Source: a virus
Lineage: Duplodnaviria > Heunggongvirae > Uroviricota > Caudoviricetes
DNA: 55,878 nt
Reading direction: 5' to 3' (one strand)
IMG/VR virus record: IMGVR_UViG_2839610755_000009
Shown here piece by piece: positions 20,428 to 48,578 of the stretch (positions are counted from its first letter, which is position 1; each line of letters opens with the position of its first letter). A program made the position numbers and the translations under genes. The notes below the pieces were generated by a model. That model was not told the DNA's origin, made no database searches, and saw only the letters and a list, made by a program, of their open reading frames with translations.

Positions 20428-21643
20428 TGCTCTGTTCAGAAGTAAATCACTGGAGAATCCTTCCACCCCGATAACCGGGGATGCCGTTGATACTGATGGG
20501 CTGTTCCGGACAGACGTTTATGTCAGTCCTGAAACTGCGATGAAACTGGCTGCGGTGTATTCCTGTATCTATGTCCTGTCTTCCAGCCTTGCCCAGATGC
20601 CGTTGCATGTTATGCGCAGGCACAATGGGAAGGTTGAGCCCGCACGCGATCATCCGGCGTTTTATCTGGTTCATGATGAGCCCAATACCTGGCAAACCAG
20701 TTACAAATGGCGCGAACTGAAGCAACGTCACATCCTTGGCTGGGGGAATGGGTATACCTGGGTGAAACGTAATCGTCGCGGTGAAGTCATATCCCTGGAT
20801 TGCTGTATGCCGTGGGAAACGACGCTGATGAATACTGGTGGCCGATATACCTACGGTTTGTACAACGAATATGGGGCGTTTGCGATCAGCCCCGACGATA
20901 TGATCCACATCCGTGCGCTGGGTAATAATCAGAAGATGGGGCTGAGTCCGATTATGCAACATGCCGAAACAATAGGCATGGGGATGAGCGGTCAGAAATA
21001 CACAGAAAGCTTCTTCAGCGGTAATGCCCGTCCGGCGGGGATAGTATCCGTTAAAAGCGGACTCAATAAGGACAGCTGGGGCTGGCTTAAAGATCAGTGG
21101 CAGAAGGCATCGCAGGCGTTACGCAGCCAGGAAAACAAAACCATGCTGCTGCCAGCCGATCTGGATTACAAGGCACTGACTGTGTCGCCAGTTGACGCTC
21201 AGATCATTGACATGATGAAACTGAACCGTTCAATGATTGCCGGTATTTTCAATATTCCTGCGCACATGATTAATGACCTCGAAAAAGCCACCTTCTCCAA
21301 TATTTCTGCGCAGGCGATTCAGTTTGTCCGCTACACGATGATGCCGTGGGTAACGAACTGGGAGCAGGAGCTTAACCGTCGCTTGTTTACCCGCGCTGAG
21401 TTAGCCGCCGGGTATTACGTTAGGTTCAATCTGACGGGGCTTTTACGCGGAACTCCGCAGGAGCGCGCGCAATTCTATCACTTCGCTATTACCGATGGAT
21501 GGATGAGCCGTAATGAAGCCCGCGCATTCGAGGATATGAATCCGGTTGAAGGGCTGGATGAGATGCTGGTAAGCGTGAATGCTGCTAACCCGGCAGGAGA
21601 TTTTAAGCCCCCAAAAAATGATGAGGGAAAAACCAATGAATGA
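20417..21643 (+). CDS. portal protein (HK97 family)
   Basis: 408 aa, GTG start; position and size typical. Confidence 0.85.
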   Translation: MLLDALFRSKSLENPSTPITGDAVDTDGLFRTDVYVSPETAMKLAAVYSCIYVLSSSLAQMPLHVMRRHNGKVEPARDHPAFYLVHDEPNTWQTSYKWRELKQRHILGWGNGYTWVKRNRRGEVISLDCCMPWETTLMNTGGRYTYGLYNEYGAFAISPDDMIHIRALGNNQKMGLSPIMQHAETIGMGMSGQKYTESFFSGNARPAGIVSVKSGLNKDSWGWLKDQWQKASQALRSQENKTMLLPADLDYKALTVSPVDAQIIDMMKLNRSMIAGIFNIPAHMINDLEKATFSNISAQAIQFVRYTMMPWVTNWEQELNRRLFTRAELAAGYYVRFNLTGLLRGTPQERAQFYHFAITDGWMSRNEARAFEDMNPVEGLDEMLVSVNAANPAGDFKPPKNDEGKTNE

Positions 21644-22238
21644 CCGTGAAATCCGTTGTTACAGCGGTGAGGTGCGTGCTGAGCGGCATGACGATAACCC
21701 TGCGCACATTATCGGTTATGGATCGGTGTTTGACTGTCGTTCTGAGCTGATATTTGGTTCATTCCGCGAAATCATCCGGCCCGGCGCTTTTGACGATGTG
21801 CTTGGTGATGATGTACGCGCACTGTTTAACCACGATCCTAATTTTATTCTTGGGCGTAGTGCAGCAGGCACGCTGAATCTTTCAGTTGATGAGCGCGGAT
21901 TGCGCTATGACATCCAGGCTCCGGAGACACAGACCATTCGTGATCTGGTGCTGGCCCCGATGCAACGTGGAGATATTAACCAGTCATCTTTTGCTTTCCG
22001 TGTCGCCCGTGACGGCGAGGAGTGGTATCAGGATGAGGACGGGGTTGTTATTCGCGAGATAACCCGCTTTTCCCGTCTGCTGGATGTCAGTCCTGTGACA
22101 TATCCTGCCTATCAGGAGGCTGACTCGGCTGTTCGCTCCATGAAAGCATGGCAGGAGGCGCGCAACAGCGGCGCGCTACAGAAAGCCATTAATCAACGTA
22201 TGGCGCGTGAACGCGTCCTGACCCTTCTTAACGCGTAA
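21636..22238 (+). CDS. prohead protease (HK97 family)
   Basis: About 200 aa from MNDREIRCYSGEV; ATGAATGA overlap with portal. Confidence 0.85.
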   Translation: MNDREIRCYSGEVRAERHDDNPAHIIGYGSVFDCRSELIFGSFREIIRPGAFDDVLGDDVRALFNHDPNFILGRSAAGTLNLSVDERGLRYDIQAPETQTIRDLVLAPMQRGDINQSSFAFRVARDGEEWYQDEDGVVIREITRFSRLLDVSPVTYPAYQEADSAVRSMKAWQEARNSGALQKAINQRMARERVLTLLNA

Positions 22239-22248
22239 AGGAAACATC

Positions 22249-23478
22249 ATGAAACTGCATGAACTGAAACAGAAACGTAATACTATCGCAACTGACATGC
22301 GCGCCCTGAATGAAAAAATTGGTGATAACGCATGGACGGAAGAGCAGCGCACTGAGTGGAACAAAGCAAAATCCGAACTGGAAGCGCTTGATGAACGAAT
22401 TGCACGCGAAGAAGAACTGCGTCGTCAGGATCAGGCGTACATTGAAAGCAATGAGGAAGAGCAGCGTCAGAATCTTGATCCGGAAAACAATCCACAACAG
22501 GATGAGAAACGAGCTCAGGTTTTTGATAAGTGGATGCGTCACGGTGCCAGTGAGCTGACATCAGAAGAACGAAAGGCGTTGCGTGAACTTCGTGCCCAGG
22601 GCGTAGCTCAGGATGAAAAGGGCGGATATACCGTACCAGAAACATTCCTGGCGAAAGTTGTTGAGAAGATGAAATCCTACGGTGGCATCGCCAGTGTGGC
22701 GCAGATTCTTACCACTTCTGACGGTCGCACTATGGAGTGGGCAACAGCTGATGGTACTTCCGAAGTTGGTGTTCTGCTGGGCGAAAATGAAGAAGCCGGT
22801 GAAGAAGACACCGATTTCGGTATGGGAAGCCTTGGGGCGCTCAAAATGACATCGAAAATAATTCGTGTGTCTAATGAGTTGCTGCAGGACAGTGCGATCG
22901 ATATGGAAGCTTATCTTGCCCGTCGCATTGCTGAACGTATTGGTCGTGGTGAAGCCCGTTATCTGATTCAGGGAACTGGTGCTGGTACGCCTAAACAACC
23001 CAAAGGGCTGGTCGCATCTGTGACCGGCACAACACAGACTGCCGCGGCAAATACGGTGAAGTGGCAGGAAATTCTGGCTCTGAAACACAGCATTGATCCT
23101 GCATATCGTCGCGGACCGAAATTCCGCCTGGCGTTTAACGATAATACGCTGAAACTGATCAGTGAGATGGAAGACGGTCAGGGACGCCCTTTATGGTTGC
23201 CGGATATTGTTGGTGTGGCACCTGCTTCAGTGTTGAATGTACCGTATGTCATTGATCAGGAAATTGATGATATCGGGGCGGGTAAAAAATTCATGTTCTG
23301 TGGTGACTTTGATCGCTTCATTATCCGTCGTGTGCGATACATGATTCTTAAACGTCTGGTTGAGCGTTACGCGGAATATGATCAGACCGGTTTTCTGGCC
23401 TTCCATCGTTTTGACTGTATCCTGGAAGACACCTCTGCCATTAAAGCGCTGGTGGGGAAAGGTAGCGTTGGTGGTTGA
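22249..23478 (+). CDS. major capsid protein (HK97 fold) with N-terminal delta/scaffold domain
   Basis: 409 aa; coiled-coil N-terminus then capsid domain. Confidence 0.9.
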   Translation: MKLHELKQKRNTIATDMRALNEKIGDNAWTEEQRTEWNKAKSELEALDERIAREEELRRQDQAYIESNEEEQRQNLDPENNPQQDEKRAQVFDKWMRHGASELTSEERKALRELRAQGVAQDEKGGYTVPETFLAKVVEKMKSYGGIASVAQILTTSDGRTMEWATADGTSEVGVLLGENEEAGEEDTDFGMGSLGALKMTSKIIRVSNELLQDSAIDMEAYLARRIAERIGRGEARYLIQGTGAGTPKQPKGLVASVTGTTQTAAANTVKWQEILALKHSIDPAYRRGPKFRLAFNDNTLKLISEMEDGQGRPLWLPDIVGVAPASVLNVPYVIDQEIDDIGAGKKFMFCGDFDRFIIRRVRYMILKRLVERYAEYDQTGFLAFHRFDCILEDTSAIKALVGKGSVGG

Positions 23479-23556
23479 TTAGTCTTTTTACGTAATACAG
23501 CACGCCGCGTAATGCGGTTTTTTTGTGCCCGCGTTCTGGCGGGCACAGGAGGTTTT

Positions 23557-23880
23557 ATGCTGTTAAAAATGGAAGAGATTAAGCTTCAGCTCCGTCTGGA
23601 TGATGATTTCTCTGATGAAGATGAGTTGCTTGAACTGCTTGGTAAGGCCGCTCAGAGTCGTACGGAAAACTTCCTTAACCGTAAGTTGTATGCAACCGCA
23701 GATGACAGGCCTGCGGATGATCCTGATGGGCTTGTGATATCTGATGATGTGAAGCTGGCACTTCTGCTACTTGTCAGCCATTTCTACGAAAACCGCTCAA
23801 CGGTTACAGACGTTGAGAAAATGGAGTTGCCAATGAGTTTTAACTGGTTGGTTGCTCCTTATCGCCTTATACCACTATGA
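23557..23880 (+). CDS. head-tail connector protein
   Basis: About 107 aa from MLLKMEEIKLQ with AGGAGG SD; preceded by hairpin + T-run. Confidence 0.7.
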   Translation: MLLKMEEIKLQLRLDDDFSDEDELLELLGKAAQSRTENFLNRKLYATADDRPADDPDGLVISDDVKLALLLLVSHFYENRSTVTDVEKMELPMSFNWLVAPYRLIPL

Positions 23881-24287
23881 AAATTCGTCAGGCGCAGACC
23901 AGCGCAACCTACATACTGCCGGACCCCGGCGAACTGAATAAACGCGTCCTGATCCGCCAGCGGGTGGATATGCCCGCGGATAACTTTGGCGTGGAGCCTC
24001 AATACCCGGTTGCGTTCCGGGCATGGGCGAAGGTTATCCAGACCAGTGCCACCACCTGGCAGGAAACCGCGCAGACCGGGGACGCCATCACCCATTACAT
24101 CACCATTCGCTACCGCCGCGGGATCACTGCTGATTATGAGGTGGTCTGTGATGACAGTGTGTACCGGGTGAAACGTCAGCGCGATCTGAACGGGGCGCGG
24201 CGCTTTCTGCTGCTGGAGTGTACGGAACTGGGCGAATTTACGCAGAGTCACGGAGGCAGCAATGGCGACTCCCTTTTTTCACGTTGA
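23877..24287 (+). CDS. head closure / head-tail adaptor protein
   Basis: 136 aa, head-completion position. Confidence 0.65.
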   Translation: MKIRQAQTSATYILPDPGELNKRVLIRQRVDMPADNFGVEPQYPVAFRAWAKVIQTSATTWQETAQTGDAITHYITIRYRRGITADYEVVCDDSVYRVKRQRDLNGARRFLLLECTELGEFTQSHGGSNGDSLFSR

Positions 24288-24768
24288 TGTTCAGCAGCCC
24301 GCCGAGATGCGCTTTAACCGCGCCCGTGTCCGGCGGGCGTTTGTCACGATTGGGCAGCGTCATATGCGTGATGCCCGTCGGCTGGTGATGCGCCGTGCGC
24401 GGTCGGCACCGGGTGAAAACCCCGGTTATCAGACCGGACGCCTGGCTCGTTCGATTGGTTACATGGTGCCGAGAGCCAGTAAAAAGCGAGCCGGTTTTAT
24501 GACACGCATTGCCCCTAACCAGCGCAACGGGAAGGGGAACCGGATGATCTCTGGTGACTTCTATCCGGCGTTTCTGTTTTTTGGTGTCCGGGGAGGAGCA
24601 AAACGTCGTCGTAGTCATCATCGTGGTGCATCCGGTGGCAGCGGCTGGCGGCTGGCTCCACGTAATAACTTTATGGTGGAAACGCTTGAAAAGAACCGCA
24701 GCTGGACACGCTATTTTCTGGCGCGAGAATTACGTAAATCACTGAAGCCTGAGCGACGACGCAGATGA
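24262..24768 (+). CDS. tail-completion protein (HK97 gp10-like)
   Basis: 168 aa basic protein in head-tail joining block. Confidence 0.55.
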   Translation: MATPFFHVDVQQPAEMRFNRARVRRAFVTIGQRHMRDARRLVMRRARSAPGENPGYQTGRLARSIGYMVPRASKKRAGFMTRIAPNQRNGKGNRMISGDFYPAFLFFGVRGGAKRRRSHHRGASGGSGWRLAPRNNFMVETLEKNRSWTRYFLARELRKSLKPERRRR

Positions 24769-25325
24769 AACTGACGCCTGTTATTGCTGCGCTGCGTGCC
24801 CGCTGCCCGTATTTTGAAAACCGGGTGGCAGGCGCGGCACAGTTCAAAAATCTGCCGGAGGTCGGAAAGCTGAGACTCCCGGCGGCGTATGTGGTACCGG
24901 GTGATGACTCTCCGGGAGAAAACAAAAGCCAGACCGACTACTGGCAGGAGCTGAAAGAGGGCTTCTCCGTGGTTGTCATACTGAGTAACGGGCGTGATGA
25001 GCTCGGTCAGTTTGCTTCGTATGATGTGGTGGACGATGTCCGGCAGATGCTCTTTAAGGCCTTGCTGGGCTGGAACCCGGAAGCGTGCGGTAACCCGATT
25101 ACCTATGACGGCGGCACGCTGCTGGATCTGAATCGTCATGAGCTGATTTATCAGTTCGATTTTTCGGTCATCAGCGAGCTGACTGAAGACGATACCCGCC
25201 AGCAGGATGATCTGAACAGTCTGGATGAACTGCAAACGCTGGCGATTGATGTTGATTATCTCGAGCCCGGTAACGGGCCTGACGGCGATATCGAACATCA
25301 CACCGAAATAACCCTTCCTTCCTGA
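24765..25325 (+). CDS. tail terminator-like protein
   Basis: 186 aa, precedes sheath gene. Confidence 0.5.
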   Translation: MKLTPVIAALRARCPYFENRVAGAAQFKNLPEVGKLRLPAAYVVPGDDSPGENKSQTDYWQELKEGFSVVVILSNGRDELGQFASYDVVDDVRQMLFKALLGWNPEACGNPITYDGGTLLDLNRHELIYQFDFSVISELTEDDTRQQDDLNSLDELQTLAIDVDYLEPGNGPDGDIEHHTEITLPS

Positions 25326-25333
25326 GGATCCTC

Positions 25334-25504
25334 ATGTTTGTCAAACCTGTTAAAGGGCGGTCAGTGCCTGACCCTGCCCGCGGCGACCTTTTGCCCGCCG
25401 AAGGGCGAAATGTTGACGAGAACAACTACTGGCTGCGCCGTGAAGCAGCGGGTGATATCCGGCGCGTGAATAAAAAGGTGAACACCGATGACGATAAGCT
25501 TTAA
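25334..25504 (+). CDS. small protein preceding sheath
   Basis: 56-aa ORF overlapping sheath start. Confidence 0.4.
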   Translation: MFVKPVKGRSVPDPARGDLLPAEGRNVDENNYWLRREAAGDIRRVNKKVNTDDDKL

Positions 25505-26984
25505 CACCATTCCGTCGAATACGCTGGTTCCGTTGTTTTATGCGGAAATGGATAACCAGGCGGCGAATACTGCACAGGACAGCGGAGCATCGCTGCTGAT
25601 TGGTCATGCCAATAACGGTGCAGAGATTGTTGCCAACAGTCTGGTACTGATGTCGTCGGCAGACTATGCACGCCAGATTTGTGGTGCGGGAAGTCAGCTG
25701 GCGCGTATGGTCGAGGCTTATCGCCAGACTGACCCGTTTGGCGAGCTGTATGTGATTGCCGTTCCTGAATCCACAGGTGCGGCGGCAACAGTTACGCTGA
25801 CGGTGACCGGGGCGGCAACCGAAACCGGCACGGTGAATGTGTATGTAGGACGTACCCGCGTGCAGGCACCGGTGACTAACGGCGATAACGTCACGATGAT
25901 TGCCAGCAGTATCCAGGATGCCATCAATGCCGTTCCGACCCTGCCGTTTACGGCTTCATCTTTGGCAGGCGTGGTCACACTGACCGCGCGTCATAAGGGG
26001 CTTTGTGGGAATGAAATTCCTGTCAGCCTCAATTACTACGGCTTTGGTGGGGGCGAAGTGCTGCCAGCGGGCGTACAGATTGCCGTGGCGACGGGTACCG
26101 CCGGAACGGGTGCTCCGGTTCTCACCGGCGCGGTGGCTGCAATGGCGGATGAGCCGTTTGATTATATCGGCCTGCCGTTCAACGACACGGCCTCCGTTAA
26201 CACGCTGGTGACCGAGATGAACGATACCAGCGGTCGCTGGAGCTATGCGCGTCAGCTGTATGGTCATGTGTATACGGCAAAGATCGGCACGCTGTCAGAA
26301 CTGGTGACCGCAGGTGACCAGTTTAACCAGCAGCACATTACCCTGGCGGGGTACGAAAAAGAGACCCAGACGCCTGCCGACGAGCTGGCGGCAAGCCGTA
26401 CCGCCCGCGCAGCGGTGTTTATCCGCAACGATCCGGCACGTCCCACGCAGACCGGTGAGCTGGTGGGTATGCTGCCTGCGCCGAAGGGGAAACGGTTCAC
26501 GATGACCGAACAACAGACCCTGCTGTCTCATGGCGTGGCAACGGCGTATGTCGAAAGCGGGGTACTACGCATTCAGCGTGATGTCACCACGTACAGGAAA
26601 AACGCTTACGGGGTTGCGGATAACAGTTACCTCGACAGTGAGACGCTGCATACCAGCGCGTATGTACTGCGCAAACTGAAATCCGTCATTACCAGTAAGT
26701 ACGGGCGTCACAAGCTTGCCAGTGACGGTACCCGCTTTGGTCCCGGTCAGGCGATTGTCACCCCGGCGGTGATCAAAGGGGAACTGCTGGCAACCTACCG
26801 TCAGCTTGAGCGTGCGGGGATCGTGGAAAACTACGAACTGTTTAAGCAGTACCTGGTTGTGGAGCGTGATGCCAGCGATCCGAACCGCCTGAACACGCTG
26901 TTCCCGCCTGACTATGTTAACCAGCTGCGTGTCTTTGCCGTGGTTAATCAGTTCCGTCTTCAGTATTCAGAGGAGTCTGCATAA
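25488..26984 (+). CDS. tail sheath protein (Mu gpL-like)
   Basis: 498 aa; size and order as Mu-type contractile tail. Confidence 0.85.
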   Translation: MTISFNTIPSNTLVPLFYAEMDNQAANTAQDSGASLLIGHANNGAEIVANSLVLMSSADYARQICGAGSQLARMVEAYRQTDPFGELYVIAVPESTGAAATVTLTVTGAATETGTVNVYVGRTRVQAPVTNGDNVTMIASSIQDAINAVPTLPFTASSLAGVVTLTARHKGLCGNEIPVSLNYYGFGGGEVLPAGVQIAVATGTAGTGAPVLTGAVAAMADEPFDYIGLPFNDTASVNTLVTEMNDTSGRWSYARQLYGHVYTAKIGTLSELVTAGDQFNQQHITLAGYEKETQTPADELAASRTARAAVFIRNDPARPTQTGELVGMLPAPKGKRFTMTEQQTLLSHGVATAYVESGVLRIQRDVTTYRKNAYGVADNSYLDSETLHTSAYVLRKLKSVITSKYGRHKLASDGTRFGPGQAIVTPAVIKGELLATYRQLERAGIVENYELFKQYLVVERDASDPNRLNTLFPPDYVNQLRVFAVVNQFRLQYSEESA

Positions 26985-27340
26985 TGGCCCGTATCGGGGG
27001 AACCTGTTATTTCAAAATTGACGGTCAGCAGCTATCGCTGACCGGCGGCATTGAGGTGCCCATGAACAAAACGGTTAACGATGACATCATCGGCCTGGAC
27101 GGTTCAGTGGACCGCAAGGAAACTCACCGTGCGCCTTATGTCAAAGGGACCTTCAAGGTGCCGAAGAATTTTCCGGTAAGCAAAATCACCTCGTCTGATG
27201 AGATGACCATCACTGCCGAGCTGGCGAACGGTCAGGTCTATGTACTGTCGTCTGCCTGGCTGCACGGCGAAGCGAACCATAATGCCGAAGAAGGCACGGT
27301 TGATCTTGAGTTCCACGGTGAAGAAGGGGATTACCAGTAA
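26984..27340 (+). CDS. tail tube protein (Mu gpM-like)
   Basis: 118 aa, ATGG overlap with sheath stop. Confidence 0.8.
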   Translation: MARIGGTCYFKIDGQQLSLTGGIEVPMNKTVNDDIIGLDGSVDRKETHRAPYVKGTFKVPKNFPVSKITSSDEMTITAELANGQVYVLSSAWLHGEANHNAEEGTVDLEFHGEEGDYQ

Positions 27341-27764
27341 TGAAAGAGCTTGAGTTAAAGAAACCGATTACTGCTCATGGCGAGACACTCTCCGTACTGG
27401 AGTTTGATGAACCCACCGGGAAGGATGTCCGCGAGCTGGGGTATCCCTACCAGATGAATCAGGATGAGTCAGTCAGACTTCTGGCGCATGTGGTGTCGAA
27501 ATACATTGTGCGGCTGGCGAAAGTGCCGCAAAGCTCTGTCGACCAGATGTCTCCGGCAGACCTGAATGCAGCGGCGTGGCTTGTGGCTGGTTTTTTCCTC
27601 CAGGCCTGACGGCTGAATACCTCACTGATCGCTTCTTTGACTGCGCCAGCTACTGGCGCATTAATCCTTTCGAATTGCTGAATATGCCGATCAGTGAAAT
27701 TCCCTTGCTGGTCAGTCAGGCAAACAGGATAGAGCAGGAGAAACGCACACATGGCGGAATTTGA
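27340..27764 (+). CDS. tail assembly chaperone with -1 frameshift extension
   Basis: ORF 27340..27609 plus overlapping -1 frame ORF to 27764; slippery T_TTT_TTC at 27591..27597. Confidence 0.7.
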
Positions 27765-29586
27765 GCTTAAGGCGTTGATCACCGGTGTCGACAGGCTTTC
27801 TCCCGCGCTGTCGAAAATGCAAAAGAAAATCCGGGGATTTAAACGCCAGGCGGAAGAAGCGTCACAGGGTGGGCTGGCGCTTGGTGGCGGACTGGCAGCG
27901 GGTCTGACGCTTTCCCTGAAATCTTATGCCGATCAGGAAAACGCCGCCACCGGGCTGAAAGTCGCCATGATGGATGCGAACGGCGAGGTTGGAAAGAGCT
28001 TTCAGGACATCAATAAACTGGCTATTGGCCTGGGTAACCAGCTACCCGGTACAACGGCTGATTTCCAGAACATGATGCAGATGCTGGTGCGTCAGGGGAT
28101 CCCGGCAGAAAACATTCTTGGCGGTGTGGGTAAAGCGACAGCTTATCTTGCGGTACAACTGAAAAAAACACCGGAAGCGGCTGCTGAGTTTGCTGCAAAG
28201 ATGCAGGATGCTACCGGAACGGCGTCAGAAGACATGATGGGGCTGTTCGACACTATCCAGAAGGCGTTTTATCTGGGTGTTGACGATACCAACATGTTGT
28301 CCTTCTTCACTAAAACCAGCTCTGTTCTGAAGATGGTGAACAAGGACGGTCTTCAGGCTGCACAGAGCCTTGCCCCCATCAGCGTCATGATGGATCAGAT
28401 GGGGATGAACGGGGAGTCGGCAGGTAACGCCCTGCGAAAAGTTATCCAGTCCGGATTAAGCGTTAAGAAAATCAGGGACGTCAATAAAATCATGGCCCGC
28501 CAGAAACTCGGGGTACAGCTCGATTTTACTGACGGCAAAGGAAGTTTTGGCGGTCTTGATAACATGTTCAGGCAACTGGCAAAGCTGCGAAAACTGACCG
28601 ACGTTAAGCGAACAGGTGTACTTAAGGCAATATTTGGTGATGATGCCGAAACCCTTCAGGTGGTCAATGCACTAATCGATAAAGGAAAGGATGGCTACGA
28701 TCAGATCCAGCAGAAGATGAATAAACAGGCCAGCCTGAATAAACGTGTTCAGGCCCAGCTTGGTACGCTGTCCAACCTGTGGGAGGCAATGACGGGGACC
28801 GCAACTAACGGCCTTGCGGCTATTGGCGGCGCATTTTCTGGTGACGCCAAAAATATCACGCAATGGCTGGGGGAGTTAGGGGAAAAATTCACGAAGTTTG
28901 CGGATGAAAATCCCCGGGTTATTCGCGGCGTCGTCGGGCTTGCTGCCGGTCTTGCGATTCTGAAACTGGGATTGATGGGCGTTGGCGGTGCCATCAGTAT
29001 TGTCAGCAGGATCATGTCGATGACGCCGATTGGAATGATTGCGACGGCGATAGCCCTGGCTGCGGGATTAATTATCACTAACTGGGATGTTGTCGGACCT
29101 TATTTCAAGAAGCTCTGGGAAACCATTGGTCCTTATTTTGAGGCTGGCTGGGAACTTCTGAAGAAGGTTTTTGCCTGGTCGCCGCTGGGGATGGTAATCA
29201 ATAACTGGGGACCGGTTGTTAAGTGGTTTCAGGATATGTGGGACAAACTGAAGCCAATTATTGAGTGGTTTACCGACAGTTCCGGTGACACGGTCGATGC
29301 CATTAACTCTGCGCAGTGGGGCGCGGGTGCTTATGATGCTTATGGGACGGGAATACCGGCACGGGGATACACACCTTATCAGGCGGTAGATCCGGCTCAG
29401 TCAAACAACGCCTCCGGTGCCACAGGCCCGAATCCCTTCATGATTAACAAAGCTTCTGCGCCAAAAGTTGATGGTGAGATCAAGGTCTCTTTTGTGAATT
29501 CGCCTCCGGGTATGCGGGTTATGGAAACGCGATCCAGCGGTTTTGATGTCAGCCATGATGTTGGCTATACGCGCTTTGGCAGGTAA
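27751..29586 (+). CDS. tail tape measure protein
   Basis: 611 aa, helical/glycine-rich, follows chaperone. Confidence 0.85.
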   Translation: MAEFELKALITGVDRLSPALSKMQKKIRGFKRQAEEASQGGLALGGGLAAGLTLSLKSYADQENAATGLKVAMMDANGEVGKSFQDINKLAIGLGNQLPGTTADFQNMMQMLVRQGIPAENILGGVGKATAYLAVQLKKTPEAAAEFAAKMQDATGTASEDMMGLFDTIQKAFYLGVDDTNMLSFFTKTSSVLKMVNKDGLQAAQSLAPISVMMDQMGMNGESAGNALRKVIQSGLSVKKIRDVNKIMARQKLGVQLDFTDGKGSFGGLDNMFRQLAKLRKLTDVKRTGVLKAIFGDDAETLQVVNALIDKGKDGYDQIQQKMNKQASLNKRVQAQLGTLSNLWEAMTGTATNGLAAIGGAFSGDAKNITQWLGELGEKFTKFADENPRVIRGVVGLAAGLAILKLGLMGVGGAISIVSRIMSMTPIGMIATAIALAAGLIITNWDVVGPYFKKLWETIGPYFEAGWELLKKVFAWSPLGMVINNWGPVVKWFQDMWDKLKPIIEWFTDSSGDTVDAINSAQWGAGAYDAYGTGIPARGYTPYQAVDPAQSNNASGATGPNPFMINKASAPKVDGEIKVSFVNSPPGMRVMETRSSGFDVSHDVGYTRFGR

Positions 29587-29646
29587 TGAAAAATTAATCT
29601 GTTAATGAGTCCCACTCCGGTGGGATTTTTTATGTACGGAGTTTAT

Positions 29647-30975
29647 ATGACGTGGAAAGACAGACTTCAGGACGCGTCATTTCGCGGTGTGCCGTTTAAG
29701 GTTGAAGAAGAAAGTGCGGGAACCGGTCGTCGTGTGGAAACGCACGAATACCCGAACCGCGACAAACCCTATACCGAAGACCTGGGGAAAATCACTTTCC
29801 GCCCGTCCATCACAGCTTATGTGGTGGGAGATGACTGCTTTGACCAGCGCGATCGCCTGATTGACGCGCTGAATAAACCCGGTCCCGGCACGCTTGTCCA
29901 TCCGACTTACGGTGAGCTGAAAGTCTGTGTTGACGGGGAAGTTCGGGTCAGCACATCGAAGAGTGAAGGGCGTATTGTCCGCTTTGACCTGAAGTTTGTC
30001 GAAGCGGGAGAACTCTCTTACCCCACTTCAGGTGCGGCGACGGCGCAGACGCTGATGTCATCCTGTTCTGCACTGGATGACTGCATCAGTGACAGCTTCA
30101 GTGGTTTCAGTATCGATGGCGTGGCAGATTTTGTGCAGAACGACGTCGTCGGTAATGCCAGCACAATGCTTGGGTATGTTTCTGATGCGATGAAAGTGGT
30201 GGATTCTGCCGTATCGGATGCCGCCAGGCTGTTGCAGGGGGATATCTCGGTACTTCTGCCGCCACCATCGTCAGGCAAAAATTTCGTTGAGCAGGTGCAG
30301 AAAATGTGGCGTACCGGGAAACGCCTTTATGGTAACGCCAGCGACCTGGTCACCATGATCAAAACGCTTTCCGGTGTCAGCCTCGGCAGCGATCTGCAAC
30401 CGCGCGGCGTCTGGAAAACGGACAGTAAAACTACCGCCACGGCGACGCAGCAGCGTAACGTGGTTGCCAGCACCCTTCGTACGACCGCAATCAGCGAAGC
30501 GGCGTATGCCGTCACACGATTGCCTGCGCCCACAACTTCCGCGGTGATGCAGAATGCCACAGTAGGGCAGTCAACAACACCCGCGCAGAGCACCGGCTGG
30601 CCTTCTGTCACGCATCCGGCACTGAACAATGCACCGGCGGTGAAAAACACGGTTGACCTGCCAACGTGGGAAGAACTGACCGACATTCGCGACACACTGA
30701 ATACGGCAATTGATAAGGAGTTGTCCCGTACAACCAGTGATGCGCTGTTTCTGGCGCTGCGCCGGGTGAAAGCAGATCTGAATGCGGATATCAACACGCG
30801 CCTTGAACAGTCTGCACGGATCATTCAGCGCACGCCGGATGAGGTTTTACCCGCGCTGGTGCTGGCGGCGACCTGGTTTGATAACGCGGCGCGTGACGCG
30901 GACATTATCCGGCGTAATGCCATTACGCATCCCGGCTTTGTGCCGGTGATCCCTCTGAAGGTGCCAGTGCAATGA
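29647..30975 (+). CDS. DNA circularisation protein (Mu gpN-like)
   Basis: MTWKDRLQDASFRGVPFKVEEE N-terminus. Confidence 0.75.
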   Translation: MTWKDRLQDASFRGVPFKVEEESAGTGRRVETHEYPNRDKPYTEDLGKITFRPSITAYVVGDDCFDQRDRLIDALNKPGPGTLVHPTYGELKVCVDGEVRVSTSKSEGRIVRFDLKFVEAGELSYPTSGAATAQTLMSSCSALDDCISDSFSGFSIDGVADFVQNDVVGNASTMLGYVSDAMKVVDSAVSDAARLLQGDISVLLPPPSSGKNFVEQVQKMWRTGKRLYGNASDLVTMIKTLSGVSLGSDLQPRGVWKTDSKTTATATQQRNVVASTLRTTAISEAAYAVTRLPAPTTSAVMQNATVGQSTTPAQSTGWPSVTHPALNNAPAVKNTVDLPTWEELTDIRDTLNTAIDKELSRTTSDALFLALRRVKADLNADINTRLEQSARIIQRTPDEVLPALVLAATWFDNAARDADIIRRNAITHPGFVPVIPLKVPVQ

Positions 30976-43313: not shown

Positions 43314-43730
43314 GTGTCTCAACCACTTTCGGAAATATTGACATGGGATGATGAACAATGGGAGGTATTTGTCCATGATTGGCTTATTGTCTGTAAATCA
43401 GATGATTACCCGTGGAGCGAACGTTTGGGAGGAGCTGGAGATAAAGGTAGAGACGTTGTTGGATATAAATCGGATCCTAACGTAGAAGGTTATTCTTGGG
43501 ATAATTATCAATGCAAACTGTACAAAAAAAGTTTAGGGTTCTCTGATGTTGTAGTTGAGTTTGGAAAACTTATCTATTTTACTCTGAATGGTGATTATCC
43601 CATCCCTCAGAAGTACTTTTTTGTGGCACCCTATGATTTATCTACTACATTTTCTAATTTATTGAAAAATAAAAACGAGCTTAAAAAAGCAGTCCTTGAT
43701 TCATGGGATTCAGCAATTTCAAAAAAATAA
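43314..43730 (+). CDS. cargo ORF A: PD-(D/E)xK-like nuclease domain (candidate effector N-terminus)
   Basis: 138 aa, GTG start 7 nt after AAGGAG; GGAGDKGRDVVGY ... YQCKLY resembles Mrr/NERD-type motif. Confidence 0.5.
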   Translation: MSQPLSEILTWDDEQWEVFVHDWLIVCKSDDYPWSERLGGAGDKGRDVVGYKSDPNVEGYSWDNYQCKLYKKSLGFSDVVVEFGKLIYFTLNGDYPIPQKYFFVAPYDLSTTFSNLLKNKNELKKAVLDSWDSAISKK

Positions 43731-44320
43731 CTAAAAAGATTGATATTCCATTAGATGATGAAATAAAAAAATATATTGAGGATTTTGATTTTAGTATTTT
43801 TTACTCTCTACCCTTATCATTGATTTTAAATGATATTGCAAATACACACCTTTATTTTAAGTACTTTAACGAGCTGTATGTCGTGAGAATCCCTCCAAAT
43901 GAAATTCCAACATACAATTCAAAAAAAGAGTCTGTATATGTTAATGCACGGCTTCAAGCCTATTCAGAGCATGGAAATAAAACTTATAGTTCTTTCTTAG
44001 AGCTTGATGATCCATACAGACGACACTTTAATAATAGTAGAAATGATTTTTATTTTGCATCTTCGCTTGAGGTTTTTGTCCGCGAAGTATTTAAAGATGA
44101 TGTATTCAAAGCATTGAAATGTTACATTTCATCTTCAATTGAACCCGTCTTTTATGAAGACCATAATTATGCATTTATTAGGTGTAATGCAGTCTTGAAG
44201 CAGGCTGTTCTGACACCAATTGCACATTCAGTACTATCAAAAATATGTGAAGCAAATGATAAAAAAGGAATATGCCATCATTTGGTTAATGATGGTGAAG
44301 TAATTTGGACGGTGAGATAA
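43703..44320 (+). CDS. cargo ORF B: probable C-terminal continuation of ORF A
   Basis: 205-aa ORF overlapping A by 28 nt, no SD; joins A by -1 shift at A7 tract. Confidence 0.45.
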   Translation: MGFSNFKKITKKIDIPLDDEIKKYIEDFDFSIFYSLPLSLILNDIANTHLYFKYFNELYVVRIPPNEIPTYNSKKESVYVNARLQAYSEHGNKTYSSFLELDDPYRRHFNNSRNDFYFASSLEVFVREVFKDDVFKALKCYISSSIEPVFYEDHNYAFIRCNAVLKQAVLTPIAHSVLSKICEANDKKGICHHLVNDGEVIWTVR

Positions 44321-44778
44321 TGGTTAGAATTTATAATTCAAGTTTAGAAGTGGCATGTCGAATGGCGAAAGTGCTCGTCGCTATTTATCCTTCTTCATTA
44401 AGCCTTGAACGGCTTATTTGTTTTGATTTTATTTTAGTAAATCTTAAGGATTTTTTACCTGAAGAGATTAGTCTTCATCCTCCAATACCCCGTAGAGATG
44501 CTCAGTTAGCCCTAAAACGAGAGATTGTTTTAGAATCATTGGCTTTGTTGCAAGGCTATGAACTAGCCTCAAAAATTTATACACATCGTGGTTTTGTATA
44601 TAAAGCTTCTGAAAAAACATATGCATTTACAAATTCTCTACATAATGAATATGTTGCGCAGATGGAGCATAATATAAATTTGGTGGTTAAGTTATATAGT
44701 GATATTCCTGATGAGCAGTTGCAATCAATTATAAAAAATAAAATTGGCAAATATGATATGGAATTTAATTATGAATGA
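44320..44778 (+). CDS. cargo ORF C: small helical protein (candidate middle component)
   Basis: 152 aa from ATG overlapping upstream stop (TAATG). Confidence 0.5.
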   Translation: MVRIYNSSLEVACRMAKVLVAIYPSSLSLERLICFDFILVNLKDFLPEEISLHPPIPRRDAQLALKREIVLESLALLQGYELASKIYTHRGFVYKASEKTYAFTNSLHNEYVAQMEHNINLVVKLYSDIPDEQLQSIIKNKIGKYDMEFNYE

Positions 44779-45403
44779 CAATTTTTTTACGTTCAGAAAA
44801 ATAAAGGTAACCGGATTCAATAAATTAGATGCTATAATTGAATTTGGTTCTAAATTGACTATTTTATATGGTGGTTCTGACTCTGGAAAAACATACATAT
44901 ATTATTTGATTCGATATTTATTAGGGAGTGAAAAACTAAAAAATAAAGATATCGATCATGCTCAAGGTTATGATTTAGCCTATCTGGAATTTAATTTTCA
45001 AGGTAGGGTAATGACAATTGAGAGGTCTCTTCAGGATAGCGCCCATTACAGATTATATGATTCGAGCATTGAAAATGTTAGTGAAGCTAATCTGTTGATG
45101 GTTTTTTCCAAAAGTGCTTCGTCTAAAAAGAGTTTTTCATCATACTTTTATGGTAGGTTGAATTTCAAAGAGGCTAAAGTAAGAACAAACTTAAGTAATA
45201 CTCTTCATAAATTTAATCTTAATAATGTTTTTGAATTTTTTTGTATTGATGAATTAAGAGTGTTAACTGAGAAGTCGTTAATTCTTTCTGATATTCCTAG
45301 CGAGGAGACAAAAAGAAAGTCTGAATTTAAATTCCTTTTAACTCAGAGAGATGATACTAACTCCTTAGCAGAAAAACCAAATAAAAAAGCAAGATATTTT
45401 TAA
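44771..45403 (+). CDS. cargo ORF D: ABC/SMC-like ATPase N-terminal head (Walker A)
   Basis: P-loop ILYGGSDSGKTYIY; ATGAATGA overlap with ORF C. Confidence 0.55.
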   Translation: MNDNFFTFRKIKVTGFNKLDAIIEFGSKLTILYGGSDSGKTYIYYLIRYLLGSEKLKNKDIDHAQGYDLAYLEFNFQGRVMTIERSLQDSAHYRLYDSSIENVSEANLLMVFSKSASSKKSFSSYFYGRLNFKEAKVRTNLSNTLHKFNLNNVFEFFCIDELRVLTEKSLILSDIPSEETKRKSEFKFLLTQRDDTNSLAEKPNKKARYF

Positions 45404-45433
45404 AAAAATCAAATTGCAAATATTTATGAGGAA

Positions 45434-46024
45434 TTGAAAGCGCAATTAATTTATCCTGAATATGATCAAGTCATTGTTTCAAGAGAACTTGAGAAAGTAG
45501 AGCAAGATATTGAATCATCGAAAGATATATTGAAAGGTATTGTTGATGCACTTGATGATAAGAAGCAATTATTAAAAGAGTTAAGTGATGAATTATATTC
45601 AATCAGTGACAGGGAAAAATACTTATCATTACTCATTGAAAGATTTAGTCTTCTTAAAGACCAATACTTTATAGATCTACAAAGAATAGATGTTGTATCA
45701 CAGGCGAATTTCTATTTAAATAATTTTGCAGATATTTATTGTGAGTTCTGTAATACACCGCAAAAAAAAGAAAATGAAATATCATATGATGATTGTTTTT
45801 TGTCGTGTAATGCAGAAAAATTGAAAATCAAAAGCCAGCTGAAAGGATTAATTGAATCAATCGGATCTAATGTTCGCGAACATGAATTAATTATGTTAAG
45901 AAAAAATGATGTTAATGAAATTTATCAATCAGAAAAAAGTGATTTTAAGACGTTAGAAGATAAAAATATAAAACAATACATTCATCTCTTGAATCACTTT
46001 ATGAATATAAAGACAATCTTTTAA
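45434..46024 (+). CDS. cargo ORF E: coiled-coil segment of ATPase (in frame with D after a single TAA)
   Basis: 196-aa heptad-rich ORF without ATG start; same frame as D; CEFC...CFLSC cysteine cluster. Confidence 0.45.
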   Translation: MKAQLIYPEYDQVIVSRELEKVEQDIESSKDILKGIVDALDDKKQLLKELSDELYSISDREKYLSLLIERFSLLKDQYFIDLQRIDVVSQANFYLNNFADIYCEFCNTPQKKENEISYDDCFLSCNAEKLKIKSQLKGLIESIGSNVREHELIMLRKNDVNEIYQSEKSDFKTLEDKNIKQYIHLLNHFMNIKTIF

Positions 46025-46590
46025 TGGATCACACAAAACATAGCATTCTATCTTCATTACAAGATAAAGAAGATGATGTTGACGAACTTAAATACTCCGC
46101 CGAGGACTTTGACTCCTTAACAGTAGCTGATTTGTATGATATAGAAATAGCGATGCAAGACTTTTTGAATGATATAAATTTTGAAAATTCTAAAGATAAC
46201 AAAGTGCGATTTGACGAAGATACATATGACTTTAATATCAATGGGAAACGCCGAGGAATGTTTGGTAAAGGTACCCGTGCAGTAATGCATGCTATATTTA
46301 CCATTTGCTTTGCGGAATTTTTATCAAGAAAAGGGAATCCATTCATTGGATTTGTTGTGCTTGATAGTCCATTAGTGACGCACTTTGATAAAGATAGAGG
46401 GGGTTCTCTATCGGATGTTAATAGCGTCAGTCTCAGTGATTCATTTTATCACGCATTAATCAAAAGGGACTATAATTTCCAGATTGTAATTCTTGAGAAT
46501 AAAGGTCCGACGTTCCAAATAAAAATTAATGATGCAAATAAAATCCATAACTTAAATAAGAATGGAAGCTCTGGTTTTTATCCTGTTTAA
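46024..46590 (+). CDS. cargo ORF F: ABC/SMC-like ATPase C-terminal head (Walker B-like)
   Basis: 188 aa; FIGFVVLDSPL hydrophobic-strand-plus-acidic motif; TAATG junction with E. Confidence 0.5.
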   Translation: MDHTKHSILSSLQDKEDDVDELKYSAEDFDSLTVADLYDIEIAMQDFLNDINFENSKDNKVRFDEDTYDFNINGKRRGMFGKGTRAVMHAIFTICFAEFLSRKGNPFIGFVVLDSPLVTHFDKDRGGSLSDVNSVSLSDSFYHALIKRDYNFQIVILENKGPTFQIKINDANKIHNLNKNGSSGFYPV

Positions 46591-46999
46591 TACATTAAAA
46601 ATATAACTGCTAATTGGGGTGCTCGAAATTATATTTCGTTTCGAGCGCTCAGTTCATTTCTAAATAATTTGCAAAATTATTTTGGGTACTTTCGCCTCTA
46701 CACTTCCTTCGGGTGGTTCCACAATAATGGATCTCACCGGCGTTTGATATTTTATAATCTAACCCCTTAGCGCGCGCAGCCCCCCACGCCTGCTCGCTTC
46801 GCTTAACAGACTGGTTTTCATGCATTCCGCAAATCGTCTCAGAAGCCACCACACAAGGGCTTTCGCGTCAAAAATGGTGCATGAGAATCATGCGTTTTCA
46901 TGCGCTATAGACATGCACTCATGCGCTCTCAGGCCAGCCAGGGAAAAGGCGTAAAAAATCCCAGTACTGGACCGGGATTACGTGGGCTTTTTTTGCTAA

Positions 47000-47272
47000 T
47001 CAGACAGGAATTTGCTGACGGCTTGACAGCTTTGACGCGGAGCCATAGCGATTGAGAGTTTGCTGTTGTTTTTCCGGCATTTGTGCTTTCTCTGATTCCT
47101 GTTCATTGCGCCGGGGCTTCATGATTATCGTATCCACACTTTCCAGTGCGGTAAATGTGTAGGAACATTCAAGATTCTGGCACTGATACCATGAGCGTTT
47201 AACCGATGGTGCTTCATAGGCGGAGGTTCTGGCGTGTGCCGTCGTACCGCATTCGGGACATTTAAGTGCCAT
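47000..47272 (-). CDS. Ogr/Delta-type zinc-finger late-gene activator
   Basis: 90 aa; CPECGTTAHARTS...YQCQNLECSYTF matches Ogr/Delta zinc finger. Confidence 0.85.
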   Translation of the reverse strand: MALKCPECGTTAHARTSAYEAPSVKRSWYQCQNLECSYTFTALESVDTIIMKPRRNEQESEKAQMPEKQQQTLNRYGSASKLSSRQQIPV

Positions 47273-47277
47273 TAATA

Positions 47278-47829
47278 TTACTCCTGCATGCCGTTAATGT
47301 AATCCAGACGTTGCTGAAAGCGCAGTTGTTGTGCAGGGGTGTAAGAGCTCTGGCAATCACGAACCATCATGGGGTCAGGCATCACACCGGATTCATCCAG
47401 AATCATACGATAATCCCCGGCAATTTCAGGCGGTGTTATTGCCAGCTGGCGAACCAGAGCATTGCGTAATATACGGGACGCAACGTCAACCCCTCCGCGC
47501 CCCTTCAGGAACGGAGCCAGTGCAGATGTCAGGGCTGCTCCATTCGCCTGCATAAAATTGCTGAGAGCGTCTTCTGTGCAGGCCTCCATCAGTTGATGCT
47601 GCGAGTAAATGCATTCGCGCGCAGCACAGTTAATTTGCCATTTCAGCACATCCAGATGTTCCCGCTGTAATTCGAGCTGTCGAGCATAATCTGCTGGTTT
47701 TTCCATGGCAGTGAGGAGTGATTCTATCTGTTGTTCAACGGCTTTTCGGCTCTCACTATGTCCAGCCCACAGAATACGGGCATTTCTAAAACTGATAAGC
47801 GCTTGGTCTGGAGTGACTCGGGCCATCAT
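47278..47829 (-). CDS. Psu-like (polarity suppression) protein
   Basis: 183 aa, P4 psu position and size. Confidence 0.65.
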   Translation of the reverse strand: MMARVTPDQALISFRNARILWAGHSESRKAVEQQIESLLTAMEKPADYARQLELQREHLDVLKWQINCAARECIYSQHQLMEACTEDALSNFMQANGAALTSALAPFLKGRGGVDVASRILRNALVRQLAITPPEIAGDYRMILDESGVMPDPMMVRDCQSSYTPAQQLRFQQRLDYINGMQE

Positions 47830-48578
47830 ACTGCTTTCTCCTTCTCAGCACGTTCCTGACGAACCTTCATTTTATGCATAGCTGCTGGAGAGAGTTTATT
47901 ACTGAAATCCAGACGGGCCGCATAATCCGGGGCAACTCCCGCCAGTTTAAACACGGGGTCCTGTTCGGGCATCGCATCGTTAGTCAGAGCCGGTCTGGTG
48001 ATATGTTTATGAATAAAATCTTTCAGCAGTGTGTCCGGGTCATTAACTGAATGCACCACACCGACAACTGCGCTGGCTTCCCTGCCCATTGTTGATTTGA
48101 GCAGGCTTAGTGTCTGGATTAGTGCTTTTCCATGCGACTGCATAAAATCTTCCCAGATTTGTTTTGCGCGAATACCCACAAGGGTGTCGTGCGCGTGGAT
48201 ATACTTTCCGGCTAATTCCGCAGCCTCCTGCGGCAAAAGTGCATTTTCGCTTTCCTGAGCCGCCAGCAGCTCATCAAAATCCTCAAGCGTTTCTCGTCCC
48301 AGCGCAATTTCCGTGCGCAGTTTTTTCATTTCCTTTGAGACTACGCCCTGACTTTCACGAAATAGCGTGCGCCACTCCTCATTCAGGGCGTTCGTCGTGG
48401 CTTCCATTTCAGCGCGGCGCTGGCGGATTGTCGCAATATTATCCGCTGCCGCTTTTTGCTGACGACGTGCTTCAAGCCATGCAGATTTGGTGGCATTCAC
48501 TTTCTCAAGCGCCTGTTGCGTCGAAACAGGGATAGAAATTTCAACGATCGGGTTATTGTTCTGTTCTGGGATTGTCAT
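47826..48578 (-). CDS. Sid-like capsid size determination protein
   Basis: 250-aa helical protein upstream of psu in the same operon. Confidence 0.55.
   Translation of the reverse strand: MTIPEQNNNPIVEISIPVSTQQALEKVNATKSAWLEARRQQKAAADNIATIRQRRAEMEATTNALNEEWRTLFRESQGVVSKEMKKLRTEIALGRETLEDFDELLAAQESENALLPQEAAELAGKYIHAHDTLVGIRAKQIWEDFMQSHGKALIQTLSLLKSTMGREASAVVGVVHSVNDPDTLLKDFIHKHITRPALTNDAMPEQDPVFKLAGVAPDYAARLDFSNKLSPAAMHKMKVRQERAEKEKAV

Follow-up and report, generated by a model that had tools for sequence, protein, structure and literature searches.

A premature TAA codon in lmuB of a decayed Lamassu locus in prophage Sp2 of Escherichia coli O157:H7

The lmuA-lmuC-lmuB locus and its intact relatives

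The viral record IMGVR_UViG_2839610755_000009 (Caudoviricetes), a stretch of 55,878 nucleotides (nt) analyzed here as a whole and called the window, carries on its plus strand a locus, lmuA-lmuC-lmuB (43314-46590), that its profiles assign to the Lamassu / ABC-three component (ABC-3C) defence systems and that occupies the int-psu hotspot of prophage Sp2. We are concerned with a single in-frame TAA (45401-45403, +) at codon 211 of the 606-codon lmuB, the SMC/Rad50-like ATPase gene of the locus. This gene lies in three pieces, listed as open reading frames (ORFs) D, E and F. The first piece (ORF D, 44771-45403, +) encodes residues 1-210, which form the N-terminal ABC head lobe with the Walker A motif GGSDSGKT (34-41), and matches Pfam AAA_23, AAA_15 and SMC_N. 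The gene truly begins at ATG 44771, and its first 8 nt are shared with the end of lmuC, an overlap also present in the intact orthologues. The second piece (ORF E, 45404-46024, +) covers residues 212 to ~398, which make up the two arms of the coiled coil together with its CxxC zinc hook (C324, C327). It then runs out of frame for ~19 codons until it stops at 46022-46024, and it has no plausible independent start. The third (ORF F, 45967-46590, +, called from ATG 46024) completes the descending coiled-coil arm and adds the C-terminal head lobe, in which the motifs GKGxRA (499-504) and Walker B FVVLDS (528-533) lie; it matches Pfam DUF3732 weakly. D, E and F match the PADLOC LmuB profile PDLC03863 (610 positions) consecutively, at 3-199, 210-412 and 428-608; they are not separate genes but parts of a single gene of 606 codons, encoding in turn its N-head lobe, its zinc-hook coiled coil and its C-head lobe. 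The RefSeq annotation of strain Sakai has a single 'AAA family ATPase' pseudogene here (ECs_0293, 313449-315268, exactly D+E+F), while the PGAP annotation of EDL933 and most other strains gives three separate coding sequences (CDSs). An NCBIfam scan of all six ORFs of the locus returned no matches.

Homologues were sought with the repaired D+E+F sequence as the query. Orthologues of 606 amino acids (aa) were found in Proteus mirabilis (P0001; 87% identity, 100% coverage) and Pantoea alhagi (P0002; 75% identity), followed by ~25 others (594-612 aa, 43-48% identity) and, at a greater distance, by a set with lengths of 611-621 aa. The Proteus protein matches PDLC03863 at 3.4e-117 over positions 3-608 of 610. 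In the alignment, 28 full-length homologues (605-621 aa) run continuously across the TAA site. The column of the stop, within the conserved motif EKPNKKAKxF-L-KxQV, holds Leu in every homologue at 43-87% identity, and Val or Leu in two distant ones. The Walker A and Walker B residues G34, S36, G39, K40, D532 and S533 are invariant in all 28, as are both cysteines of the zinc hook in the coiled coil.

An AlphaFold model of the Proteus orthologue (mean pLDDT 86) places the fragments in three dimensions. Residues 1 to ~198 form the N-terminal head lobe and 452-606 the C-terminal head lobe, and the coiled coil is built of helices 233-317 and 339-439 with its apex at 318-338. Residue 211 falls in the first helix leaving the head (205-224). 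In agreement with this model and with the profile positions, the labels that an earlier note on this DNA had given from sequence alone (N-head for D, coiled coil for E) are correct. The best Foldseek matches in the PDB are LmuB chains (9uxh_F at 4.5e-16, 9hqu_A, 9hqx_B and 9nyg_B), followed by Rad50 and SMC heads, with TM-scores of ~0.4, as expected for flexible coiled coils. The solved LmuB chains were reached by fold search only; phmmer with the intact orthologue against the PDB sequences returned nothing.

The other two genes agree with this assignment. The gene for the ABC-3C middle component 2, lmuC (44320-44778, +; 152 aa), is apparently intact, has the length seen in intact systems, and matches Pfam PF20288 MC2 (5.4e-30) and PADLOC LmuC (2.9e-36). 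The effector gene lmuA (43314-44320, +) is split in two: 43314-43730 encodes the N-terminal effector domain (138 aa) and 43703-44320 the CTD6 domain (205 aa). The latter matches Pfam PF20282 CTD6 at 3.3e-28, though the gene is frameshifted in the window. Intact relatives have one LmuA protein of 335 aa, where O157:H7 and O55:H7 have the two pieces of 138 and 205 aa, annotated by PGAP as a 'hypothetical protein' and an 'ABC-three component system protein'. The intact Proteus LmuA matches PADLOC LmuA PDLC03852 at 2e-87. The N-terminal effector domain of LmuA was left unnamed by every library searched, including Pfam at E<=1; its motif GDKGRDVVGY...YQCK may point to a restriction-endonuclease (Mrr-type) fold.

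ABC-3C belongs to the Lamassu superfamily (PMC10586767). From the LmuB, LmuC and LmuA profiles and the LmuB fold matches, we assign the locus to the short (type II) Lamassu / ABC-3C systems. The order lmuA-lmuC-lmuB is that of Vibrio cholerae DdmABC (LmuACB), Salmonella enterica LmuACB (9hqu/9hqx) and the E. coli Lamassu Ec-Lipase. The features that the locus shares with short Lamassu are, in LmuB (~606 aa), the Walker motifs Gx4GKT (A) and hhhhDS (B), a short coiled coil and a CxxC zinc hook; in LmuC, the MC2 type; and in LmuA, a CTD6 C-terminal domain. Unlike those systems it has lmuB broken into three and lmuA into two, and its identity to the solved LmuB chains is only 13-15%. The systems of Proteus mirabilis and Pantoea alhagi have the same operon order, the same 8-nt lmuC/lmuB overlap and a 606-aa LmuB. 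Their lmuB is uninterrupted, and so is the 335-aa lmuA in one Proteus (L008) and two Pantoea (L010, L011) assemblies, against one nonsense and two frameshift lesions in the window. In the remaining two assemblies lmuA is called short, at 145 aa (Proteus, L007) and 201 aa (Pantoea, L009); the cause may be a difference in gene calling or a single-base change, the aligned stretch having no length difference.

The TAA codon and its alleles in E. coli

Direct reading of the sequence gives the stop in the context ...GCA AGA TAT TTT TAA AAA AAT CAA ATT.... It spans the junction of a 12-nt T5A7 tract (45397-45408, +; T5 at 45397-45401, A7 at 45402-45408). As the earlier note had pointed out, the TAA alone stands between D and E: in the ORF list, D (44744/44771-45403) and E (45434-46024) share one frame (position mod 3 = 2). 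The lack of a credible start for E, claimed in the same note, is also evident. The earliest in-frame candidate past the TAA is TTG 45434, which the Shine-Dalgarno-like GAGGAA (45428-45433) abuts with zero spacer; the first in-frame Met codon comes ~165 codons downstream, and ATG 45426 is out of frame. By the note's own criterion, its reading would have been refuted by a conserved gene boundary at this position, with an independent start for E, in intact relatives. Alignment to the related loci, which the note proposed, gave the opposite: the intact orthologues and all 28 full-length homologues are continuous across the site, with Leu the residue of close relatives in the stop column.

The distribution of alleles in E. 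coli was examined with the 3.4-kb locus, which matched 310 records from 309 E. coli genomes at an identity of at least 99%; where a serotype label is given, nearly all of these genomes are O157:H7 and a few are O55:H7. In the nucleotide alignment, Proteus, the O55:H7 strains CB9615, USDA5905 and RM12579 and the O157 strains 493/89 and LSU61 carry T6A6 with a TTA codon, TATTTTTTAAAAAATC, whereas the allele of the window is T5A7 with TAA, TATTTTTAAAAAAATC. The two differ by a single T-to-A transversion at 45402 and are both 12 nt long. An exact match to a 41-nt T6A6 probe is present in 10 of the 309 E. coli records: seven O55:H7 strains (RM12579, USDA5905, DEC5A, DEC5B, DEC5D, DEC5E and TB182A), FDAARGOS_946 (unserotyped, with O55-type alleles), 493/89 and LSU61. 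T6A6 is present in CB9615 too, where SNPs flank it, and the remaining 298 records differ. The T5A7 carriers thus number ~298 E. coli genomes, O157:H7 or O157 wherever a serotype is given. The TAA is identical in Sakai, EDL933 and every typical O157:H7 row sampled, and over 43300-46700 the window differs from Sakai by one base (43950), which leaves the TAA unaffected. The earlier note had reasoned that T6A6, with its TTA (Leu), would join D and E, and natural alleles do exactly this: in strain 493/89, the prototype of the sorbitol-fermenting O157 branch, D and E are encoded as one protein of 417 aa, and F follows on its own.

The published branching order runs from O55:H7 through an LSU-61 intermediate to the sorbitol-fermenting and non-sorbitol-fermenting O157 lineages (PMC3309690). 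Because TTA is present in O55:H7, LSU61 and 493/89, this order places the origin of the TAA on the branch to typical non-sorbitol-fermenting O157:H7, where it is fixed. The T/A state at 45402 is a clean lineage marker, with typical non-sorbitol-fermenting O157:H7 on one side and O55:H7, LSU61 and sorbitol-fermenting O157 on the other. The leading reading of the earlier note, a genuine nonsense mutation, is sustained by the TTA of the related alleles and by the conservation of Leu in this column. One plasmid-labelled record, NZ_CP044147.1 (46.9 kb, from O157 AR-0428), carries the locus (35293-36042), 100% identical to the chromosomal copy; it is the sole carrier so labelled, and the label is probably an error for a contig of the chromosome or of a prophage. 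In the phage collection, megablast found no counterpart of the locus.

Further lesions and alternative readings

The TAA, although real, is not the single defect that the earlier note had taken it for. A second lesion of lmuB lies in an A5 run at 45962-45966 (+), a 1-nt deletion relative to the A6 of Proteus that shifts the frame from E to F. At this junction the E. coli alleles read GAT-AAAAATAT (A5) where Proteus has GGTAAAAAATAT (A6). Restoration of one A gives ...LEDKKYKTIHSSLESLYEYKDNLLMDH..., which aligns without a gap to Proteus LEGKKYKKIHLLLESLYEYKDNLLMDY and yields a protein of exactly 606 aa, with the repaired LEDKKYKTIH set gap-free against LEGKKYKKIH of Proteus. The deletion is present in all E. 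coli alleles examined, those with TTA included. The effector gene is broken as well, by a frameshift in an A7 run (43721-43727, +) that lacks 1 nt relative to the Proteus and Pantoea genes and is common to O55:H7. Since the lmuB deletion at 45962-45966 and the lmuA frameshift would both remain, repair to TTA alone, which the earlier note had suggested as a test for restored function, would not be expected to restore it; the predicted product is a 417-aa protein without Walker B. With both frames interrupted (by the TAA and a 1-nt deletion in lmuB, and by a 1-nt deletion in lmuA), the locus is by its sequence a Lamassu pseudo-system and not a functional member of the family.

Another A-run in lmuB (45933-45938, +) varies among strains: A6 in the window, 493/89 and Proteus, A5 with an early stop in O55:H7, and A7 with an immediate TGA in LSU61. 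This variation in length indicates recurrent slippage in a gene that is no longer selected. The A7 of LSU61 was considered as a +1 change offsetting the -1 at 45962, and this was rejected, as the shifted frame meets the TGA and the ORF ends at 390 aa. Further changes are confined to single strains or subclades. In CB9615 an extra T disrupts the lmuB head at the counterpart of window 45235, leaving an N-terminal ORF of only 159 aa, and FDAARGOS_946 has an internal stop in lmuC (1981-2439 of its locus, L014). At window position 43950 there is a G (CGG, Arg83 of the C-terminal lmuA fragment) in place of the T of Sakai (CTG, Leu); the intact relatives have Leu at the matching residue (VYVNALLQAY), and strains F1273 and TX 376-2 share the allele of the window. 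This is a further subclade-specific change in a dead gene.

Could the fragments be translated apart, into a working multi-chain LmuB or with D alone in a new role? The three CDSs called by PGAP in most strains would fit this view, as would the 100% identity of the fragments across the clone and the ATG that F has of its own, overlapping the stop of E (TAATG). E, however, has neither an ATG or GTG start nor a spaced Shine-Dalgarno sequence, and neither break coincides with a boundary in the 28 full-length homologues or in the solved single-chain LmuB (~560-650 residues). The identity across the clone reflects its youth, not selection, and the different extra disabling indels of sister lineages (at 45933-45938 and 45235), together with the lmuC stop, are the signature of neutral decay. 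A promoter scan of 43000-47100 found 20 candidates where 18.5 were expected, which is chance level and gives no evidence for an internal promoter of E or F. We consider a functional split very unlikely.

A miscalled homopolymer boundary, with a true state of T6A6, is still less credible, although the stop does sit at a T5A7 homopolymer junction and one noisy assembly (ATCC 43888, L006, with frameshifts in many genes) reads T5A6 there. The MAFFT column that gave ATCC 43888 a T at 45402 is an alignment artefact of this homopolymer error, and the strain still reads TAA. Homopolymer errors alter length; here one base is replaced by another in a tract that keeps its 12 nt. T5A7 is found in the Sanger-era sequences of Sakai and EDL933 and in the sampled rows of ~298 independent complete genomes from many laboratories and platforms, and the alleles track phylogeny (O55:H7, LSU61 and 493/89 against typical O157:H7) rather than sequencing technology. 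This allele pattern therefore excludes an artefact, to which we give next to no credence, and makes the stop derived rather than conserved.

Readthrough or recoding of the TAA, the remaining suggestion of the earlier note, would yield full-length ATPase and truncated N-head in a regulated ratio. The shared frame of D and E, with only the stop in between, would fit such a device, and recoding is used by some phage and defence genes. TAA is not known to be recoded in E. coli. The codon is a sense codon in all 28 full-length homologues and in 11 E. coli alleles, and Leu in all close homologues, so that the TAA is absent from every homologue and ancestral E. coli allele and no recoding site is conserved. 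Moreover, the stop lies upstream of a frameshift: complete readthrough would still end at 46022-46024, after ~417 aa and before Walker B, and the effector gene is broken in any case. A programmed stop is thus as implausible as a sequencing error. A phase-variable homopolymer switch is dismissed by the constant 12-nt tract, the substitution and the complete lmuB ORF in 0 of 309 records, and an alternative genetic code by the E. coli host and the normal reading of the flanking genes.

These results argue, with a high degree of confidence, that the TAA is a genuine, clonally fixed nonsense mutation in the already decayed Lamassu lmuB of Sp2. The lmuA and lmuB A-run deletions appear from the sequences to be older than the TAA, because O55:H7, 493/89 and LSU61, in which TTA persists, have both of them. 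By parsimony, the system was probably inactive already in the common ancestor of O55:H7 and O157:H7 through these two deletions. The change of TTA (Leu211) to TAA at 45402 would then have been a later hit in a gene under relaxed selection, and this nonsense mutation would have become clonally fixed in typical non-sorbitol-fermenting O157:H7.

Four points weigh against this account. The shared A-run deletions could be the outcome of recurrent slippage and not of shared ancestry, which is conceivable because the neighbouring A-run varies (A5/A6/A7), and the order of the lesions would then be less certain. The 298 TAA-type records were judged by identity bands and ~70 sampled rows, every one of which is identical to the window. 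A search of 5,426 complete genomes found no E. coli copy that is fully intact, and the intact state is taken from other genera. Lastly, the loss of LmuB function is deduced from sequence.

Consequence, prophage setting and meaning

A product that ends before codon 211 keeps Walker A (34-41); missing from it are the coiled coil with its zinc hook, GKGxRA (499-504) and Walker B (528-533). In the LmuA1B2C1 complex the distal LmuB coiled coils bind LmuC and the C-terminal domain of LmuA, and mutants in Walker A or in the coiled-coil interface abolish Lamassu defence (PMC12663957). The short-Lamassu patterns given in the same work are hhhhD[Q/S/T/E] for Walker B and Gx4GK[S/T] for Walker A (PMC12663957). 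Because the fragment is without elements that published mutagenesis shows to be necessary for defence, we strongly infer that the truncated LmuB would be non-functional.

The locus is set in a P4-like satellite. In Sakai the region is annotated as 'prophage Sp2, P4-like phage', with a P4-type integrase (42129-43310, +) on the left flank and ogr/delta, psu and sid (47000-48578, -) on the right. The int-psu interval of P4-like satellites is a defence hotspot (PMC9122126, Rousset et al. 2022), and Pantoea has the same P4-like context, with int, the system, and then ogr/delta, psu and sid in this order. The integrase-to-psu/ogr position and the AT-rich cargo are those of other int-psu hotspot cargo (PMC9122126; PMC13586616); here the cargo has ~30% GC against ~50% in its flanks, and the rest of the window is mostly ~45-58%. 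A terminator-like hairpin with a 13-pair stem (46617-46650, +), found by consensus scan only, begins 27 nt past the lmuB stop and is probably the operon terminator.

Elsewhere in the window (16387-33820), the neighbouring Sp1-like prophage has its terminase, portal, capsid and tail genes enclosed by two direct copies of an IS3-family element (IS1203/IS629-like; ~16176-17642 and ~32354-33820) at a distance of 16,178 bp from each other. Strain F1273 is without exactly 16,178 bp at this place, that is, one IS copy and the bracketed genes, and the Sp1 of Sakai is only 10.6 kb. These observations are consistent with recombination between the two copies having deleted the Sp1-like segment in other O157 strains.

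Earlier knowledge covered the gene family, the P4 hotspot and, through Sakai RefSeq, the status as a pseudogene; Zhou et al. 2010 (PMC2806823) make no mention of ECs0293-0295, Sp2 or CP-933I. What is added here is the polarity and timing of the mutation, the second lesion of lmuB, the lesion of lmuA and the assignment of the locus to Lamassu. The TAA is a case of ordinary gene decay, and the stop codon as such reveals nothing biologically new. One may speculate that the decay was selected, as permissive for pO157 and for lambdoid/Stx prophages, or that the 210-aa Walker A head acts as a dominant-negative decoy against other Lamassu systems, though we think this improbable. Lamassu/DdmABC acts against plasmids and against phage DNA during replication, and its over-activation is toxic. 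Under selected decay, the shared lmuA and lmuB frameshifts in the ancestor of O55:H7 and O157:H7 could have been a permissive step for the later accumulation of pO157 and of many lambdoid/Stx prophages.

Recognisable defence pseudogenes are rare in P4 hotspots, according to a 2026 survey (PMC13586616). The locus of the window is decayed hotspot cargo of this uncommon kind, preserved because the host clone is young. It thus represents a rare documented P4-hotspot defence system part-way through decay, a tidy but unsurprising example. Its importance is mainly one of annotation, as lmuB is labelled a single pseudogene in the curated Sakai record only; censuses of defence systems that count the fragments could wrongly score O157:H7 as a carrier of Lamassu/ABC-3C, or could miss the system.

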